This document shows positions 30,959-63,501 of a DNA stretch of 64,000 nucleotides, in pieces (position 1 is the first letter of the stretch; the number at the start of each line of letters is the position of its first letter). Origin of the DNA: a virus (lineage: Duplodnaviria; Caudoviricetes); IMG/VR virus record IMGVR_UViG_3300001525_000584, positions 32,001 to 96,000 of that record; one strand, given 5' to 3'. Both the position numbers and the translations under genes were made by a program. The notes below the pieces were generated by a model that saw only the letters and a list, made by a program, of their open reading frames with translations, was not told the DNA's origin and made no database searches.

Positions 30959-33900
30959 ATGAAGTTGAGATTAAGAGAAGCAAAATCTATAGAAGCTGAA
31001 TATCAGGCAAACTGGACCTCCATCCCCAGAGATGTTTTTGATACTATTATATCTTTAGATCCAAAAACAGATGTAACTAAAAATAATATAGGAGATACTG
31101 CAAAAAGGTTACTTTTACCTAAATATGCTGCCGGAGAAACAGCTTTTGTAGAGAATCCTGAGCTAACAGAATTAATAAATACTTATGTAAATAATAGAGG
31201 AAACTATAATATTAAAAATGTTGCTCAGTTTCCTTCTGTTGAAGTATTTATGAATTATGTAAAAGACCCTGAAAATACTCCTGTAGAAACCCAAGAGATC
31301 GTAAAAGAATCTAAAATAGATAAAATTTATAAACAGTACTATTCAGATATCCCCAGAGATATGTTCGACAGATTTATAGTTTTAGATCCCTTTACTAATA
31401 TAGAAAAAGAATCTATAGGAGAATATGCAAAGCAACTTTTACTGCCTTTACTCAGAAAATCCTTAAAAGGTGATACAGAGGCTTTAGGAGATTATAAATA
31501 TAAGCAAATCACAGACACCATTAACCAGTTTGAAAAAAGTAAAAAGGCATTAAATGTAGATGCTCAGGTTTTATCTAGTTACAATACTTTTGCAGAATTT
31601 TATGATATGGCTTATGGTGGTACTCCTTCTGAGTTTTTGACATATCTAAAAAATCATGAAGTCATGCAAAATGGCGATTTACGTTATATAGGCTCTACAG
31701 TACTTTATGATGTATTTGAGGCCGTGACTATGTATGGAGATGCCGTGGTATCGGGTGCCGAGAAAATCTTTGGTGGCCCAGGACTTAGAACACGAGGCTC
31801 AGATGTAAATGGCTCTATACACTATAGCGAGAACGCTTACGGGCACTGGTGCACTTCTGAATCTTTATACTGGTTTAATAAACCTTTATATAAAGGCGAA
31901 GACGGCAAAAATAAATATTATGTATTCATTTATAAACCAAATCCTAAGGCAGACGACCGAGCACACAATTATCAGTTAGCCATAGCGCCTTCAGGCGAAG
32001 TTGTCAGCAATGCTACGGGAGAAGAGCAATTTGGCGAAAACAGAAAATATGCTGAGCAGCTATTTGGCGAAGATCCTGAAGTCCTAAGAGTTCTGGGTAA
32101 AGAAAAAGACTGGGCCGGCAACATCGACGAAGTAGTTATGTATAATAACTCAAACTTCGCCGACTATGAGATTAACAGCCCGGAGGATATAGAAAAGTTA
32201 GTAAACCTAAAGAATAGTGCTTTGATTAAAAAGATGATACAAAAGTTAACTATAGGCCCTGAGGTAAAAAGAATCCCTGTATTAGCTTTTGCAAACTGTT
32301 CTTCTTTAACCGAAGTAAACTTTTCAGAAGGTTTAGAAGTTATAGGCGCACAGGCATTTAAAAACTGTTTAAATCTATTAACAGTAAAGTTCCCCAGTAG
32401 TTTGACCTATATAGGAGGTCAGGCCTTTATGAACTGTGCAGCTTTATCAGGCATAGTCAGAATACCTAATTCTGTAACAACTATAGGATTAAATGCCTTT
32501 AAAAATACCCGGGCAACTTTATATATTAGAAAAGATCGTCCTGCAAAATCTCTAAAAATAGATCCTATGGATCGCCAGTGGTTTATGGATTCTGTACAAA
32601 TCACTAATGAATCTTTAGAGGAAGATATTAATGAATTAGATGAAGATTTGCCTCGGGACTTAGCTAGAGCATATAGAGATTCTCAAACACGCGGTAACTC
32701 TGCCTTAGGCCATGATACGAGGCATGGAGAAACTATGACTGCTCGAAGGGGCTCCGAAATAGATTTTTACAACTCTGATTATGAAGAAGTAGATGCCAGA
32801 ACAGCTGTTCAAAGAGTTCGGGAAAATCCTTCTTCTGTAGATCATATCCGCGCAATTTTTGGTAAGCAATTTTTAGAATTAGATCTACGCAATAATAATA
32901 AAGTATATCCTGTGGTCATGCCTACCAGCGATAATGGGCTTTTTAATAAACGTATGCTCGATTTAGGTGCCTCAGCTAGTAACATAGCAGACTGGGTACG
33001 ACACAAAGTACAGTCTTATAAGGGCTTAGAAACAGTATTAGGTGCAGCAGATAAAATTTATTGGACTAATGAATATGATCATATGATAACGCTGGACTCT
33101 GAGGCTGCGAGAAAAAGAGCTCAGAATAATGATCGTCAAAGAGACCTTAAGATGCCCCCTGACTGGGACACATTAAGTACGGAGCAAAAAAGTAAATGGT
33201 TAAGAGATAATAATTATTCACCCTTAGTAAAAAGAGTACGCGATAGCGGAAATCATTCAGGAACAGGTACTCCTTTAGATAATGTAAAAACATTTACTTC
33301 ACATAATTACAGTGATTATATAGGCTCGGAGCTGCAGCAGCACCCAGAGGTGCTTCGCAGGAGAAGGGCTCAAGATCGCTATAAATATTTACAAAAGACT
33401 CTTAAGAAGTTAATAGCTAATAGATCAGACTATGATGAAGATGAATTTGAACTTTTAAAAGATTCTCTAGAGCAAAAAGTAAAAAGCGCTTATGAAAAGT
33501 TTATAGCAGTTAATACAGAAGCACAGCGCATTGCAGCACACGCAGTCACAGAATATAATGAATGGGCATTCAACATTAGTCAACGCATTAAAGATCATTT
33601 AGTCGCTATGCGCGAAGTTTATGAAAAAGCTGCACAGATGGATGAAAAGCTTCGTAAATTAAAAAATGAATTAGCAAAAGAAGAGACCAAAACCGTTCAG
33701 GATTCAGAAGCTCGTAAGGCATATGAGCAACAACTTGCTGATAAGAGATCGCGATTAGAAGACTGTCAGGCATCTATAGAAAGCGTCCAGGAAAATATAA
33801 ATGATCTCGAAGAGCGTATGCGGGAACTGCAGGCGGAAATTGATGCGCAGAGGCACGCATTAGATTTACGTCAGGCACGTAAAACAGTTTTAACGCAACA

Positions 33901-57724: not shown

Positions 57725-58225
57725 ATGATTAAAACGAGGCATAATGTTTTTGAAACTAATAGTTCGAGTACGCACTGCATCAGTTTTGTGGATAAGCCCG
57801 CGCCCGATTCTTATCCCGAGACTTTAAATTTTACTTTAGGTAGATTTGGCTGGGAGCCTCAGTTTGCAGATCATCTAAGTTATCTTTACACAGCTATTTT
57901 AGATTATTATAAGGACGATGATGTTGGGGTAGAGAAGATAGCACACCTAAAAAAAGTTATGGATAAAAACAACATTAAATATTCTTTTTATCCGGAGTTT
58001 ACTAATCATGCAACAGCAAGCAAATATGATTATTATATAGATCATGCAACAGAGTTGGGTGGCTTTTTGGAAGATATTTTTTCTAATGATGAAGATCTTT
58101 TGCGTTATTTGATTTATGGCGAGGTCGCTTGCTATAATGATAATGACGAATATGAAGACTATTCAGCACATACAGAAGCAGTATTAGAAGATCCGGAAAC
58201 AAAATGTTGGATTAAAGGAAACTAA
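57725..58225 (+). CDS. FETNSSxxH-motif protein 1
   Basis: N-terminus MIKTRHNVFETNSSSTH. Confidence 0.7.
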   Translation: MIKTRHNVFETNSSSTHCISFVDKPAPDSYPETLNFTLGRFGWEPQFADHLSYLYTAILDYYKDDDVGVEKIAHLKKVMDKNNIKYSFYPEFTNHATASKYDYYIDHATELGGFLEDIFSNDEDLLRYLIYGEVACYNDNDEYEDYSAHTEAVLEDPETKCWIKGN

Positions 58226-58227
58226 TT

Positions 58228-58770
58228 ATGAAAACTATTCGTAAAGGTGTTTTTGAAACAAATAGTTCGTCCAGCCATTCTTTTGTTATCAGAACAGATG
58301 ACTGTATAGAGAATGCAGATATATATTATACACATGCAGAGATGCTGGAGGAGCTGAGACTTAATAAGCAGGGCGACTATAAATCATATGGCGAATGGGA
58401 TTTTGGCCGAGCTCCTTTTAGGCCTCTTTTCACTTTTGAGGATAAATTCAGATATGCGTGGGCATCTTTTCAGTATGAATCAGAAAAGCAAACAGAATTA
58501 ATAGAAGTTGTTCGAGAATTAGTCCCTGAATTTAAAAGCTTTACGCCGCCCATGTACTGCGCTTTGGATGAGAATATGCTGGACTACTGGCTGGATTCTA
58601 ACGGAGTTACATTAAAAGAATTTTTAACAAATAAAAAGTATGTCATTATTCAGGATGGTGATGAATATAATATTTGGCGAGATATGGTCAGAGCTGGTTT
58701 GGTTGATACAAAGCATATAGAGAATAAAGAAGGATGGTATACAGGAGATGAGTTTTTATCAGAGAGCTAA
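58228..58770 (+). CDS. FETNSSxxH-motif protein 2
   Basis: N-terminus MKTIRKGVFETNSSSSH. Confidence 0.7.
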   Translation: MKTIRKGVFETNSSSSHSFVIRTDDCIENADIYYTHAEMLEELRLNKQGDYKSYGEWDFGRAPFRPLFTFEDKFRYAWASFQYESEKQTELIEVVRELVPEFKSFTPPMYCALDENMLDYWLDSNGVTLKEFLTNKKYVIIQDGDEYNIWRDMVRAGLVDTKHIENKEGWYTGDEFLSES

Positions 58771-59248
58771 TATCAACGAGCATCTTTTCATTATGAAAAA
58801 AGAAGAACCTCAGAATCCTGAGCAACTTTTTGAACAGCTTCGCTGGATGTATCATGAAGATACAAAAATTCTTGATTTAGACTGGTCGGATGATGATGCA
58901 CTATTTATTCATACAGATTTTCAACTTTTAAAAACTTTTAGAGAAAAACTATATTATGCTTATGCATCTCTATATGACGATCCGCAAATTGAAAAGCTAC
59001 TAAGGAAAATTTTACCTGTTGATATAAAAGAGATCGTTGTGCCTACGATGAGAAGCCACTCAGGAGATAATCTAAAGGGTTGGATGCGTCAGTATAATTT
59101 TTCTTTAGAAGAATTTTTGGCTAATGAAAAATATATAGTCATTTGTGATCAGTATAATGCTTTTAGAAACATAGTTGAATTAAAGCTAATAAACTGGGAT
59201 AATGTAGCTGAATCGTCCATGTTGTGCGATGAGGAGGATGAAGAATGA
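58748..59248 (+). CDS. Paralogue of the body of protein 2, lacking the N-terminal motif
   Basis: TF..K..YA.AS and L.EFL.N.KY..I.D shared with 58228. Confidence 0.6.
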   Translation: MSFYQRANINEHLFIMKKEEPQNPEQLFEQLRWMYHEDTKILDLDWSDDDALFIHTDFQLLKTFREKLYYAYASLYDDPQIEKLLRKILPVDIKEIVVPTMRSHSGDNLKGWMRQYNFSLEEFLANEKYIVICDQYNAFRNIVELKLINWDNVAESSMLCDEEDEE

Positions 59249-59658
59249 AAACCGTTAGATATAATGTTTTTGAAACAAATAGTTCTGCTTCACATAGTTT
59301 AATTATCTGCACAGATAATGAATTAGAAAAGTGGAAAAATGGCGACTGCTTTTATAATACAGATGCACAGAGATTTGAGTTTACTACAGATGAAGATCTT
59401 TTAACAGAAGAAAATATAAGAGATGCAGAAAACAGTTATAAGAGCAGACAAACTATTTTCATGAAAAGCTGGGATGAATTATCTGATTCAGTTAAAGCAG
59501 AATACATCAGAAGTTATCTATATGCATATAGTTCGGATGATATGCTAACCTATAAAGATTATCAAGAAGAATTAGAAGATGCACTTACGGTAAAAACAAC
59601 AACTTATGTCACAGAACATGGCGATAAAATTAATGTTCTGAGCTGGGTAAAGGATTAA
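59245..59658 (+). CDS. FETNSSxxH-motif protein 3
   Basis: N-terminus MKTVRYNVFETNSSASH. Confidence 0.7.
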   Translation: MKTVRYNVFETNSSASHSLIICTDNELEKWKNGDCFYNTDAQRFEFTTDEDLLTEENIRDAENSYKSRQTIFMKSWDELSDSVKAEYIRSYLYAYSSDDMLTYKDYQEELEDALTVKTTTYVTEHGDKINVLSWVKD

Positions 59659-59735
59659 TTAATTTTTTATAAAAGGCCTCTACAGGGGCCTTTTTATTGT
59701 ATAATTAGATAATTTTATTTTTAAGGAGATTTATT

Positions 59736-60140
59736 ATGCAACGAAGTTGTGAATCATGTATACACACAGATGTATGCAAATATAAAGCAGACTATGCAGA
59801 ACTACTAAAAGAAAAACAAACCATCACTAAAAAGAATAATGAAGATGTTTTTGAAGCGATCATCGACTGTAAATATTATAAAACAAATGAGGTTATTTAT
59901 AAATTAGGAGATGTAGATTATACTTCGCCGTATACAGCCCCATATATAAATAACTGGAAATTTAATGATCCGTGCAAGGACTGCTGGGTAAAAGATCATA
60001 ATAGAAATATAGATTTTGGAGATAATCCTTGCTACTACTGCTCGAAGAATCCTTATAGAGTTACATGCACGGATGATTCTATTACTACATCTACATCAAA
60101 ATCTACGGATACAGTTACTTCTACATATACTTTAAACTGA
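59736..60140 (+). CDS. Cys-rich hypothetical protein
   Basis: CxxCxHxxxC and further CxxC pairs; AAGGAG RBS. Confidence 0.55.
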   Translation: MQRSCESCIHTDVCKYKADYAELLKEKQTITKKNNEDVFEAIIDCKYYKTNEVIYKLGDVDYTSPYTAPYINNWKFNDPCKDCWVKDHNRNIDFGDNPCYYCSKNPYRVTCTDDSITTSTSKSTDTVTSTYTLN

Positions 60141-60143
60141 TAA

Positions 60144-60758
60144 ATGAACCCTTTTCACGAATTAAATAAAGTGGACAAATTAGAGAAGTTGATTGAAAAG
60201 TATTCTCTAAACACAGAAGATTTTATAGATATAGAAGATTTAATGGTCTTCGTAAATTATTTAGAAGAGCCTTCTGTGTTAATATCTGAGATGGCCAACT
60301 TCTATGGTAAAGAGATCAAAATAGAAAAGATACCCTTTTCTTTTTTCATATCTACTAAGAGCGCTGTACATGGAGCACACGGTATCAGAGCGAAAATAAA
60401 ATGGAACACAGATAAAATTACTGATGCTGATGGTTCTTTAGATTTACATGGCGATTATAATTATAGAATAGGTTCCCATAAATATAAACCTACAGCGAAG
60501 GAATTGCAATTAGCAAAAGAATTTTTCAAAAAGTATAAAGTTCTATTTGCAGCTGTGTGGGAAAATGTTTTGAATCCATGGTATTTACAAAAATATTTTG
60601 AAGGTACCATAACCTTTAAAAGGCTCTTAGCGCATATGCAGGTACATGAAGAAGATGATCCTGAGGATATAGACTATTATAATATTAATCACTGCAACAG
60701 CTTATCTGAATTAGAGGGCCTTATCAGAAGAGATCAACTGTATAATATGAATGACTAG
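60144..60758 (+). CDS. Hypothetical protein
   Basis: 204 aa, coupled between neighbouring ORFs. Confidence 0.55.
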   Translation: MNPFHELNKVDKLEKLIEKYSLNTEDFIDIEDLMVFVNYLEEPSVLISEMANFYGKEIKIEKIPFSFFISTKSAVHGAHGIRAKIKWNTDKITDADGSLDLHGDYNYRIGSHKYKPTAKELQLAKEFFKKYKVLFAAVWENVLNPWYLQKYFEGTITFKRLLAHMQVHEEDDPEDIDYYNINHCNSLSELEGLIRRDQLYNMND

Positions 60759-61716
60759 AGCAGAAAAGAGGGTAAAAAGGATGAAGCTTATCGGTAAATA
60801 TCAAAATGGAAACTACGAAGTTCGTATTTATGATGATGGAACTAAAGTCAGAGAAAATGATTTAGACTTTTTTGAAGCAGCTTTTCCTGAGAGCATGGAT
60901 TTAAAGATCACTAATAGATGTACTGATCCTTTAGGTCCCGGCTGTGGCAACTGTGAATTTTGCCATGAAAATAGTGGCCCCTGTGGTAAACATGGAGATA
61001 TTTTAAGTCCTTCTTTTATAGATGAGTTACATCCTTTTACAGAGATCGCTGTAGGTGGTGGCGATGTATTAGAGCATCCTGACCTGATCCCCTTTTTACA
61101 GAAGCTAAAGAATTTGAAAATGATTCCATCCATCACAGTGCATCAAAATCATTTTATGGCAAATTTGCCCCTGCTAAGAAAACTAAGAGATGAAAAGCTG
61201 GTTTATGGCATAGGTATCTCTTTATTCGATGCGGAGCAACTTGGCTTTATAGAAGCAGTACAGGAGTTTCCTAATGCTGTTATTCATGTTATTAATGGTG
61301 TAGTAACCTATAGAGAACTGAGGGCGCTTGCTAATAACGCTTTAAAACTACTTATTTTGGGCTATAAAGAGGTTAGAAGAGGTGCACAGCTATATGCACA
61401 TGAAGCAAAGAAAATCGATTATAACAAAGATTTACTATATTCTCTGCTGCCTGCTATTATTTATGAAAAGTGGTTTAAAGTAGTTTCTTTTGATAATCTT
61501 GCTATAAATCAGTTAAATCCGCAGCAGCTCATCACAGAAGAACAGTGGGCTGAGATGTATATGGGCGATGATGGCATCGGAGGAAAATTAACTTCGGCCA
61601 GCATGTTTGTGGATATGGTCGAAAGAAAATTTGCAAAGAACTCTTGCGATATGACCCGATATGATTTAATGAATACTATAGAAGATATGTATAAAAAACT
61701 AAAGGAGGAAAAGTGA
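60751..61716 (+). CDS. Radical SAM protein
   Basis: 'DLKITNRC...C..C..CHE', 'EIAVGGGDVLEHP', 'SITVHQ'; start may be ATG 60781. Confidence 0.85.
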   Translation: MTRAEKRVKRMKLIGKYQNGNYEVRIYDDGTKVRENDLDFFEAAFPESMDLKITNRCTDPLGPGCGNCEFCHENSGPCGKHGDILSPSFIDELHPFTEIAVGGGDVLEHPDLIPFLQKLKNLKMIPSITVHQNHFMANLPLLRKLRDEKLVYGIGISLFDAEQLGFIEAVQEFPNAVIHVINGVVTYRELRALANNALKLLILGYKEVRRGAQLYAHEAKKIDYNKDLLYSLLPAIIYEKWFKVVSFDNLAINQLNPQQLITEEQWAEMYMGDDGIGGKLTSASMFVDMVERKFAKNSCDMTRYDLMNTIEDMYKKLKEEK

Positions 61717-62580: not shown

Positions 62581-63501
62581 ATGACAAACTTTTATATGTT
62601 AATAGGTTTACCAGGCTGCGGAAAATCTTTTTATGCAAAAAAGCTGAATGAAGAAACTGGAGCTATTATTCATTCATCAGATGCCATTAGAGAAGAGCTT
62701 TTCGGCTCTGAAGAAGTGCAGACAGAATCTTCAAAAGTATTTGAGCTTTTACATCATAGAGTTAAAGAAGATTTGGCAAAAGGTAACGATGTTATTTATG
62801 ATGCTACTAATATAAATTCTAAAAGAAGAAGAGCTTTCTTGCAGGAACTTAAAAAATATAATTGTAAAAAGACCGCTGTATTTATTGCCACGCCTTATGA
62901 AAAATGTTTAGAACAAAACAACGCAAGAGATCGAAAAGTTCCTGAGCATGTTATAAAGCGCATGTATATGTCTTTTAATACTCCATGCACGCAAGAAGGT
63001 TTTGATGAAGTAGAAATCGTTTATCCTGAAGATATAAATTTTACCTTTATATCAACTCTTATCAACAGATATTATAAAATAAGTCATGATAATCCTCATC
63101 ACACAGCTGCTATAGGGGAACATATGAATAATGCAGCAGAGCTTTTAGTAACAAAATATATGCCCAAAGTATCTTTAAAAGATGTATGGACTTTATATAT
63201 GGCAACTATTTTGCATGATATAGGAAAACCTTTTACTAAAACTTTTATTAATAGTAAAGGCGAAGAAACCCCTATAGCACATTATTATAATCATAATAAT
63301 GCAGGTGCTTATGATGTATTTTTTACTATGGTTCCCGAAGAGATTAAAATAGATGTAGCTTTATTAATTCAGTATCATATGAATTATTATATGTCGTGGA
63401 AACAGTCCTGTGAAGCGGAAAATAGAGACCGAGCCTTTTTAGGTAAAAGATTATCAGATATGTTAGATATTTTACATGTATGTGATTTGGAGGCGCACTA
63501 A
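62581..63501 (+). CDS. Polynucleotide kinase-like P-loop (AAA_33) fused to an HD phosphohydrolase
   Basis: GLPGCGKS; SSDAIR; DATN; N..R.R.VPE.VI; HDIGKP. Confidence 0.85.
   Translation: MTNFYMLIGLPGCGKSFYAKKLNEETGAIIHSSDAIREELFGSEEVQTESSKVFELLHHRVKEDLAKGNDVIYDATNINSKRRRAFLQELKKYNCKKTAVFIATPYEKCLEQNNARDRKVPEHVIKRMYMSFNTPCTQEGFDEVEIVYPEDINFTFISTLINRYYKISHDNPHHTAAIGEHMNNAAELLVTKYMPKVSLKDVWTLYMATILHDIGKPFTKTFINSKGEETPIAHYYNHNNAGAYDVFFTMVPEEIKIDVALLIQYHMNYYMSWKQSCEAENRDRAFLGKRLSDMLDILHVCDLEAH

Follow-up and report, generated by a model that had tools for sequence, protein, structure and literature searches.

A Serine-Rich N-Terminal Tag on Unrelated Phage Proteins and a Co-occurring Radical SAM Enzyme: A Probable Protein-Modification Module

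Organization of the Locus

This report concerns an array of similarly headed genes and a nearby radical S-adenosylmethionine (SAM) enzyme gene in a 64,000-nucleotide stretch of a Caudoviricetes virus (positions 32,001 to 96,000 of IMG/VR record IMGVR_UViG_3300001525_000584), which is referred to as the window and supplies all coordinates unless another locus is named. Three open reading frames (ORFs) on the + strand, at 57725, 58228, and 59245, are headed by one serine-rich pattern of 14 residues, R-x-x-V-F-E-T-N-S-S-x-x-H-S (the tag), as had been reported, with the same starts, in a first-pass annotation of this DNA. The products are termed proteins A, B, and C, and the part of each that follows the tag is termed its body; their N-termini read MIKTRHNVFETNSSSTH (A), MKTIRKGVFETNSSSSH (B), and MKTVRYNVFETNSSASH (C). 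A six-frame motif scan of the whole phage genome (217,629 bases) found exactly three copies of the tag, and the identical scan of 1.55 Mb of reversed related sequence, which served as the control, gave 1 match; a chance origin of the tag is therefore excluded. The genes of the locus are as follows.

57725..58225, + strand: tagged protein A (166 aa, isoelectric point (pI) 4.6; body family A; tag at residues 5-18, bases 57737-57778)
58228..58770, + strand: tagged protein B (180 aa, pI 4.7; body family B; tag at bases 58240-58281)
58748 or 58793..59248, + strand: paralogue of body B with a decayed tag (start ambiguous, giving 166 aa or 151 aa)
59245..59658, + strand: tagged protein C (137 aa, pI 4.5; short family "T1"; tag at bases 59257-59298)
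59736-60140 and 60144-60758, + strand: two intervening genes between the tag array and the enzyme (134 aa with 9 Cys; 204 aa)
60751..61716, + strand: radical SAM enzyme (321 aa, single predicted cluster)
62581..63501, + strand: P-loop polynucleotide-kinase-like and HD phosphohydrolase protein (306 aa)

The acidity of the three tagged proteins (pI 4.5-4.7) is shared by their relatives (median pI 4.7). With the sole exception of a match between protein A and phrog_28997 (1.6e-13), the tagged proteins found no match in Pfam, NCBIfam, PADLOC, or the PDB sequences; likewise, neither blastn of the region nor tblastn of protein B against GenBank phages returned a match. The short family T1, to which protein C belongs, usually lies directly upstream of the enzyme.

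The fourth ORF of the array, which ends at 59248, aligns with protein B by BLASTP (3e-12, 31% over 103 residues). Translated from the ATG at 58748, its N-terminus still shows traces of the tag: the His and the hydrophobic strand are kept, together with an aromatic residue and a Q in place of the E, and the E, T, N, and three Ser of the tag are all replaced. Neither this start nor 58793 has a convincing ribosome-binding site. The extra body-B paralogue is also present, in the same arrangement, in the closest relative of the locus (L001).

The radical SAM gene, which had been placed about 1.1 kb downstream, starts 1,093 bases past the last tagged ORF, with two non-conserved genes between. For these intervening genes (59736-60140 and 60144-60758), none of 80 related loci contains a homologue and no family matches; they are not part of the conserved module. 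The deaminase and phosphoesterase that the same annotation had noted upstream are real, being a dCMP deaminase (PF00383, 7.4e-14) and a metallophosphoesterase (PF00149, 3.8e-14); the former occurs in 33 of 180 related loci and the latter in 0 of 80, and the two are not conserved partners.

Co-occurrence of the Tag and the Enzyme

The association between tag and enzyme was sampled from both sides. The tag-first sample comprised 80 IMG/VR loci, each of which encodes a relative of protein B. Of these, 77 have the enzyme within 10 kb and on the same strand; two of the exceptions are cut by contig ends, and in the third (L012, which is also L123) a distance of about 11.8 kb separates the enzyme from the relative of protein B, slightly more than the sampled flank. 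No other neighbor in the window is conserved as strongly as the enzyme across these loci, 79 of which contain at least two tagged ORFs. Most often, a gene for a long tagged protein is followed by one for a short tagged protein and then by that for the enzyme, the three abutting. An enzyme-first sample of 137 loci was drawn from IMG/VR (97), genome or metagenome-assembled genome contigs (38), Prevotella phage Lak-A1, and Microcystis phage Ma-LMM01. One or more tagged ORFs lie within 8-10 kb of the enzyme in 129 of the 137, including 16 of the 17 loci found with the Ma-LMM01 enzyme, 75 of the 80 found with the family alignment, and 36 of the 38 contigs from bacterial and archaeal genome bins. 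The two genome-bin misses are contigs of 3 and 5 kb; as for the five full-length IMG/VR exceptions, four have tags elsewhere on the contig and the fifth is a 17.7-kb fragment. Genomic co-occurrence, which the first-pass annotation had proposed as a check, is thus near-complete in both directions.

All 198 tags in the 97 IMG/VR loci lie on the strand of the enzyme, and the number of tagged genes per enzyme gene ranges from 1 to 7. Lak-A1 carries five tagged ORFs directly after an enzyme that is 41% identical to that of the window, and Ma-LMM01 carries one (MAP_130) two genes upstream of an enzyme (MAP_128) that is 33% identical; the association of tag and enzyme therefore survives divergence of the enzyme to 33-41% identity.

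Gene fusions lead in the same direction. Six protein clusters are tag-body-enzyme fusions whose junction lacks a start codon, one cluster has the reverse order (enzyme, then tag), and two related fused tag-enzyme clusters are headed by a variant tag without the His. Two proteins among P0498, P0501, P0241, and P0243 bear two tags each; because the internal tag keeps its own Met, these may be cases of read-through or merged gene calls. The enzyme and the tagged proteins are very probably functional partners.

Conservation of the Tag and Separateness of the Bodies

Residue frequencies were derived from 433 unique tags, for which the search pattern demanded E, S13, and S14 and did not demand R, F, or N, nor, for the protein set, H. 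R5, E10, N12, S13, S14, and H17 are present in 100% of tags, a figure that is partly circular for the search anchors E, S, and S; S15 is present in 99%, F9 and T11 in 96%, and S18 in 87%. At position 7, 54% of the tags have Gly and 33% have Asn, and all three window copies differ there. The resulting consensus is R5-x-[GN]-V-F-E-T-N-S-S-S-x-H-S, followed by a hydrophobic strand, from which protein C departs by a rare Ala at the third serine (position 15, window 59287-59289). A tag-only profile of 36 positions, run against 1.84 billion representatives, matched 5,965 clusters (50% identity) at E <= 0.001 and 540 at E <= 1e-10, and among the 150 best matches nearly all have a tag that begins at residue 5-6.

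This pattern of conservation bears on one reading in which the enzyme is a mere neighbor. The prohead protease of phage T4 cleaves after [ILV]-x-E, a pattern that V-F-E fits, and the tag could on that basis be a capsid-targeting or protease-processed leader, cut after V-F-E from packaged or injected cargo. Such a leader is very improbable, as the strongest conservation lies past the putative cut (T-N-S-S-S-x-H-S), it would not explain why the tagged proteins are almost always linked, and sometimes fused, to a radical SAM enzyme, and the module is situated among early or auxiliary-type genes rather than head genes.

The bodies behind the tag had been described as largely dissimilar, and the comparison bears this out: the BLASTP alignment of A and B is limited to the first 22 residues, that is, to the tag, and profile-profile comparison of the three tag-free body families detected no homology (probabilities of 0.6%, 0.2%, and 0.2%). 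Single-linkage clustering had merged bodies A and B into one family, a grouping that the profile comparison does not support. Each tag-free body nonetheless has orthologues of its own, A in 96 related loci, B in 106, and C in 53. At least 165 homologues of protein B were found, none with a Pfam domain, and the tag stands at the N-terminus in all 120 of those listed. Because each body has separate orthologues and no homology links the bodies, one short segment appears to head at least three unrelated, individually conserved proteins. The earlier phrase "variable client proteins" thus stands in that several bodies exist, and falls short in that these are a few conserved families (orthologues in 53-106 loci) rather than free variants.

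Structure of Protein B

Protein B was modeled with AlphaFold (AF2) at a predicted local distance difference test (pLDDT) score of 87.6 and a predicted template modeling score of 0.84, the tag being the least confident part (pLDDT only 54-77); this low confidence fits a segment that would become ordered only on a partner. The model found no counterpart among solved structures by Foldseek against the PDB (best E 0.49) or by VIA against 48,161 chains (best Z 2.6, to ribosomal proteins), and retrieved only uncharacterized phage relatives from BFVD and only unnamed viral clusters from the ESM Atlas. The fear that the tag is simply a strand of an already characterized fold is accordingly not borne out for this protein. 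The fold searches also returned no flavodoxin-like, Toprim, archease, SGNH, or P-loop fold, which is a weak negative; these ideas came from the motif pattern and are unsupported. The alignment of body B reveals the invariant motifs F-G-R-x-P-F and D-G-D-E-Y, with D114, D143-G-D145-E146, R61, and K73 as invariant charged residues.

These features invite the idea that the tag is an intrinsic active site, namely a catalytic or ligand loop that holds a phosphate or metal through E10, S13-15, and H17 in small enzymes of the same pathway, and is neither the substrate nor the binding partner of the radical SAM enzyme. In its favor, the phosphate-binding sites of flavodoxins, PP-loop proteins, and P-loop proteins typically consist of a strand and an ensuing loop rich in Ser/Thr, close to the N-terminus; the invariant residues of the tag (R, E, N, three S, and H) are chemically reactive, and the D-G-D-E cluster of body B could complete a metal site. 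An intrinsic site is nevertheless improbable: an active-site element would not usually recur on three bodies without detectable homology, the protein B model does not pack the loop confidently on the body, the fold searches yielded neither a flavodoxin-like, P-loop, nor other known fold (with the weakness just mentioned), and the fusions to the enzyme are left unexplained.

The Radical SAM Enzyme

By its cysteine motif and its fold alike, the enzyme is a member of the radical SAM superfamily. PF04055 is detected in all 23 aligned family members (best 1.8e-8), with the window copy at 18 bits, below the gathering threshold of 29.5 bits, and the enzyme matches phrog_16999 (1.1e-30); no NCBIfam model matches it, and no close sequence is present in the PDB. 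At least 7,492 homologues were scored. The family consensus is N-R-C-x3-C-x-M-C-H-E-N-S, in which C57, C68, and C71 are invariant across the 23 sequences. In the cluster loop (window 60919-60963), the window enzyme carries a 7-residue insertion, P-L-G-P-G-C-G, which contributes an extra Cys and widens the spacing from C-x3-C-x2-C to C-x10-C-x2-C. Only the two closest relatives share this insertion; at the corresponding loop position, locus L066 carries a different one, also with a Cys. Because only one near-invariant cysteine (C299, in K-N-S-C) lies outside the cluster motif, the enzyme is predicted to have no auxiliary cluster and a single Fe-S cluster. Searches for SPASM and Fer4 families in the 23 members found nothing beyond a weak Fer4_12 match in 6.

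The enzyme model (pLDDT 85.7) matches many radical SAM structures at Z 10-18.6. It matches SkfB best (Z 18.6 over 267 residues) and SuiB next (Z 17.3 over 284 residues), the alignments of which start at residues 9-13 and are alone in covering a small, highly conserved N-terminal domain of about 45 residues, composed of one helix and three strands; other radical SAM structures (BlsE, EpeE, PqqE, the viperins, the anaerobic sulfatase-maturing enzyme (anSME), and ChlB) align from about residue 42 at Z 14-16. Foldseek placed SuiB first, followed by DesII, CteB, BlsE, SkfB, EpeE, anSME, and ChlB. In the model, the N-terminal domain thus appears to sit where the peptide-binding domain of two peptide maturases lies, from which we infer that it may bind the tag.

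Two other comparisons were set aside. An analogy with QueC/QueD/QueE, suggested by gene sizes and the loop insertion, fails in that no QueE model matches and both partners bear the same tag. The radical SAM gene of the T4-like phages KP15 and RB43 matches only over the first ~115 residues, at 27-31% identity and with no tag nearby, and is treated here as a different subfamily.

Inteins are a recurrent feature of the family: many homologues hold them, and most of the 115 long forms contain LAGLIDADG/Hint domains. In L001 (6200-8800) and L009 (13200-15650), the intein end (...V-S-N) directly precedes the third cluster cysteine (C-H-E-N-S), and in L066 (11700-13900) another intein is located at the SAM-binding G-G-G stretch; no intein is present in the window copy. 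The closest relative of the enzyme in the genome collection, at 72% identity, lies on a phage-sized contig of 175,925 bases (L182, CALCUH010000135.1) that was binned with uncultured Bacteroidales, a weak hint at the host range of the phage in the window.

Genomic Setting

To describe the setting, the + strand ORFs of 180 loci were clustered, with the following recurrent products (a Pfam name is used where indicated).

Radical SAM enzyme: 177/180 loci
Tagged proteins: 174/180 loci
Kinase/HD protein (window 62581-63501): 65/180 loci, third commonest
C5 DNA methylase (Pfam name): 44/180 loci, e.g., L136:13034-13972
TROVE-like/VWA protein (DUF2828/DUF7788/VWA; Pfam name): 36/180 loci, e.g., L156:10527-12242
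dCMP deaminase: 33/180 loci
Thg1-like tRNA-His guanylyltransferase (Pfam name): 32/180 loci, e.g., L062:19769-20596

The kinase/HD protein matches AAA_33 (4.8e-25), KTI12 (3.3e-14), and HD (4.4e-6), together with Pnkp and PSTK models, the Pnkp kinase match (1.5e-19) being far under the full-length cut-off. Judged from these domains, it appears to have the P-loop kinase plus phosphoesterase layout of polynucleotide kinase/phosphatase end-healing enzymes. In P0446/P0449, the N-terminus of the enzyme is joined in frame to a homologue of the whole kinase/HD protein (30% identity, 8e-32), and the gene is absent from the Lak and Ma-LMM01 loci; the protein is possibly an accessory partner of the enzyme in one phage clade, outside the core module. 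A phage-like contig of Thomasclavelia cocleata DSM 1551 (L218, NZ_FOIN01000028.1) encodes a long tagged protein, a short tagged protein, and the enzyme, with anti-repressors, a DNA methyltransferase, a Thg1-like gene, and the NAD-salvage pair of NAMPT and phosphoribosyl pyrophosphate synthetase as neighbors. Residence of the module in repair or counter-defense regions hints at its purpose and proves nothing; the RNA-repair, NAD-salvage, and DNA-methylase setting weakly suggests a counter-defense or repair role for the matured clients.

The same setting gives weight to an alternative in which the tag remains unmodified and the tagged proteins serve as adaptors or subunits. The tag would then dock the acidic proteins on the enzyme, for instance as a strand added to the N-terminal sheet of the latter, and the bodies would recruit or regulate an RNA, tRNA, nucleotide, or host-protein substrate. 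Co-occurrence and fusions fit this arrangement as well as they fit modification of the tag; the kinase/HD protein is both frequent (65 of the 180 loci) and fused to the enzyme (P0446/P0449), Thg1-like and TROVE/VWA RNA-repair genes recur nearby, and the enzyme lacks auxiliary clusters, as do viperin, DesII, and BlsE, which act on nucleotides or sugars (Z 13-16). Against an adaptor role, obligate subunits would be expected at about one per enzyme, not as 1-7 copies from unrelated families accompanied by a tag-decayed paralogue; the Lak and Ma-LMM01 loci keep the pairing of tag and enzyme without the kinase/HD gene; and the best structural matches are peptide-modifying enzymes. Adaptors are hence credible, if on the unlikely side.

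Proposed Function of the Module

The favored reading is that the tag enters the active site of the enzyme and is modified there, a proposition to which about an even chance is given. The shared N-terminal tag would act as a portable recognition segment that docks each client on the enzyme and brings one of the invariant residues of the tag into the active site; SAM would be cleaved reductively at the single [4Fe-4S] cluster, and the resulting 5'-deoxyadenosyl radical would abstract a hydrogen atom from the tag, with Ser13 or Ser14 as the best guess for the site; each acidic client would need the ensuing covalent modification for its function. We infer the docking, the use of the tag as substrate, the site, and the chemistry alike. 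Modification of the tag fits the facts that one enzyme has several clients, that unrelated bodies share an invariant tag, and that a tag-decayed paralogue exists, and also the disorder of the tag in the monomer model and the structural neighbors of the enzyme.

Several points weigh against this reading. The enzyme is predicted to lack the auxiliary cluster that most characterized peptide-crosslinking and Ser/Cys-oxidizing radical SAM enzymes have. The third Ser of the tag cannot be a universal modification site because protein C carries Ala there, and a clade of fused proteins carries tags devoid of His (E-T-S-S-S-S-A-S). Given its invariant acidic and basic residues, body B could itself be an enzyme with the tag in its active site, and the kinase/HD-enzyme fusion and frequent tRNA/RNA-repair neighbors would also fit an RNA substrate. 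Lastly, many of the sampled loci come from related gut phages, and the locus counts overstate the number of independent events, although the host spread and the fusions do not depend on that kinship.

In its fullest form, the proposal is that a minimal single-cluster radical SAM enzyme installs a covalent modification or protein-derived cofactor on the invariant N-terminal Ser-rich tag of several unrelated families of small acidic proteins and thereby arms these clients for counter-defense or RNA repair, as a widespread and undescribed phage system that extends from Prevotella megaphages to a cyanophage; this complete account is advanced tentatively, at somewhat less than an even chance. The first-pass annotation had likewise proposed an uncharacterized radical SAM post-translational system, in which the NSSS stretch would be modified to build a cofactor or catalytic residue. 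That suggestion is partly supported, by the co-occurrence, the fusions, and the three body families, and its analogy with the anSMEs does not extend to membership in that class.

Significance of the Module

No description of the module was found in the literature searched (by motif strings and by radical SAM together with Ma-LMM01 or Lak phage), in Pfam, or in NCBIfam, and it is probably an undescribed protein-modification module. It is very common, occurring in phages of Bacteroidota, Firmicutes, and cyanobacteria and on one contig binned with an archaeon. New in the present analysis are the recognition of the three bodies as separate conserved families, the fusion and frequency of the kinase/HD protein, and the inteins at the third cluster cysteine, as well as three particulars of the window, namely the insertion in the cluster loop, the S15A copy of the tag, and the paralogue whose tag has decayed. 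If the tag is indeed the substrate of the radical SAM enzyme, the system would represent a new modification on folded proteins directed by a short, portable recognition tag, which might become a tool for site-specific protein chemistry, and would assign a role to thousands of "hypothetical" phage genes in counter-defense and RNA-repair regions. Microcystis phage Ma-LMM01 (MAP_128, MAP_130) and the phage-like contig of T. cocleata DSM 1551 offer culture-collection entry points.

Comparison with Known Systems

The maturases of ribosomally synthesized and post-translationally modified peptides (RiPPs), represented by SkfB (PDB 6EFN) and SuiB (PDB 5V1Q/5V1T), resemble the phage module in that one enzyme is encoded beside proteins with a presumed recognition sequence, and residues 9-45 of the phage enzyme model align with their N-terminal domains, the phage domain being much shorter (~45 residues). 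Sequence identity is 10-13%, and the phage enzyme, unlike SkfB and SuiB, lacks a twitch or SPASM auxiliary cluster. The phage clients, moreover, are not short leader-core peptides; they are folded proteins that fall into several families and begin, at their very N-terminus, with the conserved segment. Their lengths range from 97 to 257 residues, and protein B, the one body modeled, folds with a pLDDT of 87.6.

The anSMEs, including AtsB (PDB 4K36-4K39), had been cited in the first-pass annotation as a precedent, and a likeness exists insofar as one enzyme serves several full-size clients with a short Ser motif near the N-terminus (Z 14.3-14.8). Membership in this class fails: the phage enzyme has a single predicted Fe-S cluster and no SPASM domain, and is not an anSME for these reasons; the auxiliary-cluster cysteines are missing; the tag lacks C/S-x-P-x-R, with neither Pro nor Arg after the serines; and the clients are no sulfatases, having no Pfam match and, in the case of protein B, a model unlike any solved structure searched.

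Radical SAM peptide epimerases (EpeE/YydG, PDB 8AI1, and PoyD) resemble the phage enzyme in structure (Z 15.0 for EpeE), and the near-invariant lone cysteine late in the phage enzyme, C299, could by analogy serve as the hydrogen-atom donor that such epimerases use; in contrast, EpeE has an auxiliary cluster, and epimerase substrates are short peptides. The activases of glycyl-radical enzymes (the pyruvate formate-lyase activase PFL-AE and NrdG) are small single-cluster enzymes, as the phage enzyme is predicted to be, and act on a short conserved motif of a partner encoded nearby, and one database source labels a homologue of the phage enzyme "organic radical activating enzyme." No activase family model matches the enzyme, however, and the phage tag is devoid of the invariant glycine of an R-V-x-G-[FWY]-type motif and is N-terminal where theirs is C-terminal. 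In summary, the module most resembles, in its way of working, a radical SAM maturase that has tagged clients, and it stands outside both the RiPP-maturase and the anSME classes.

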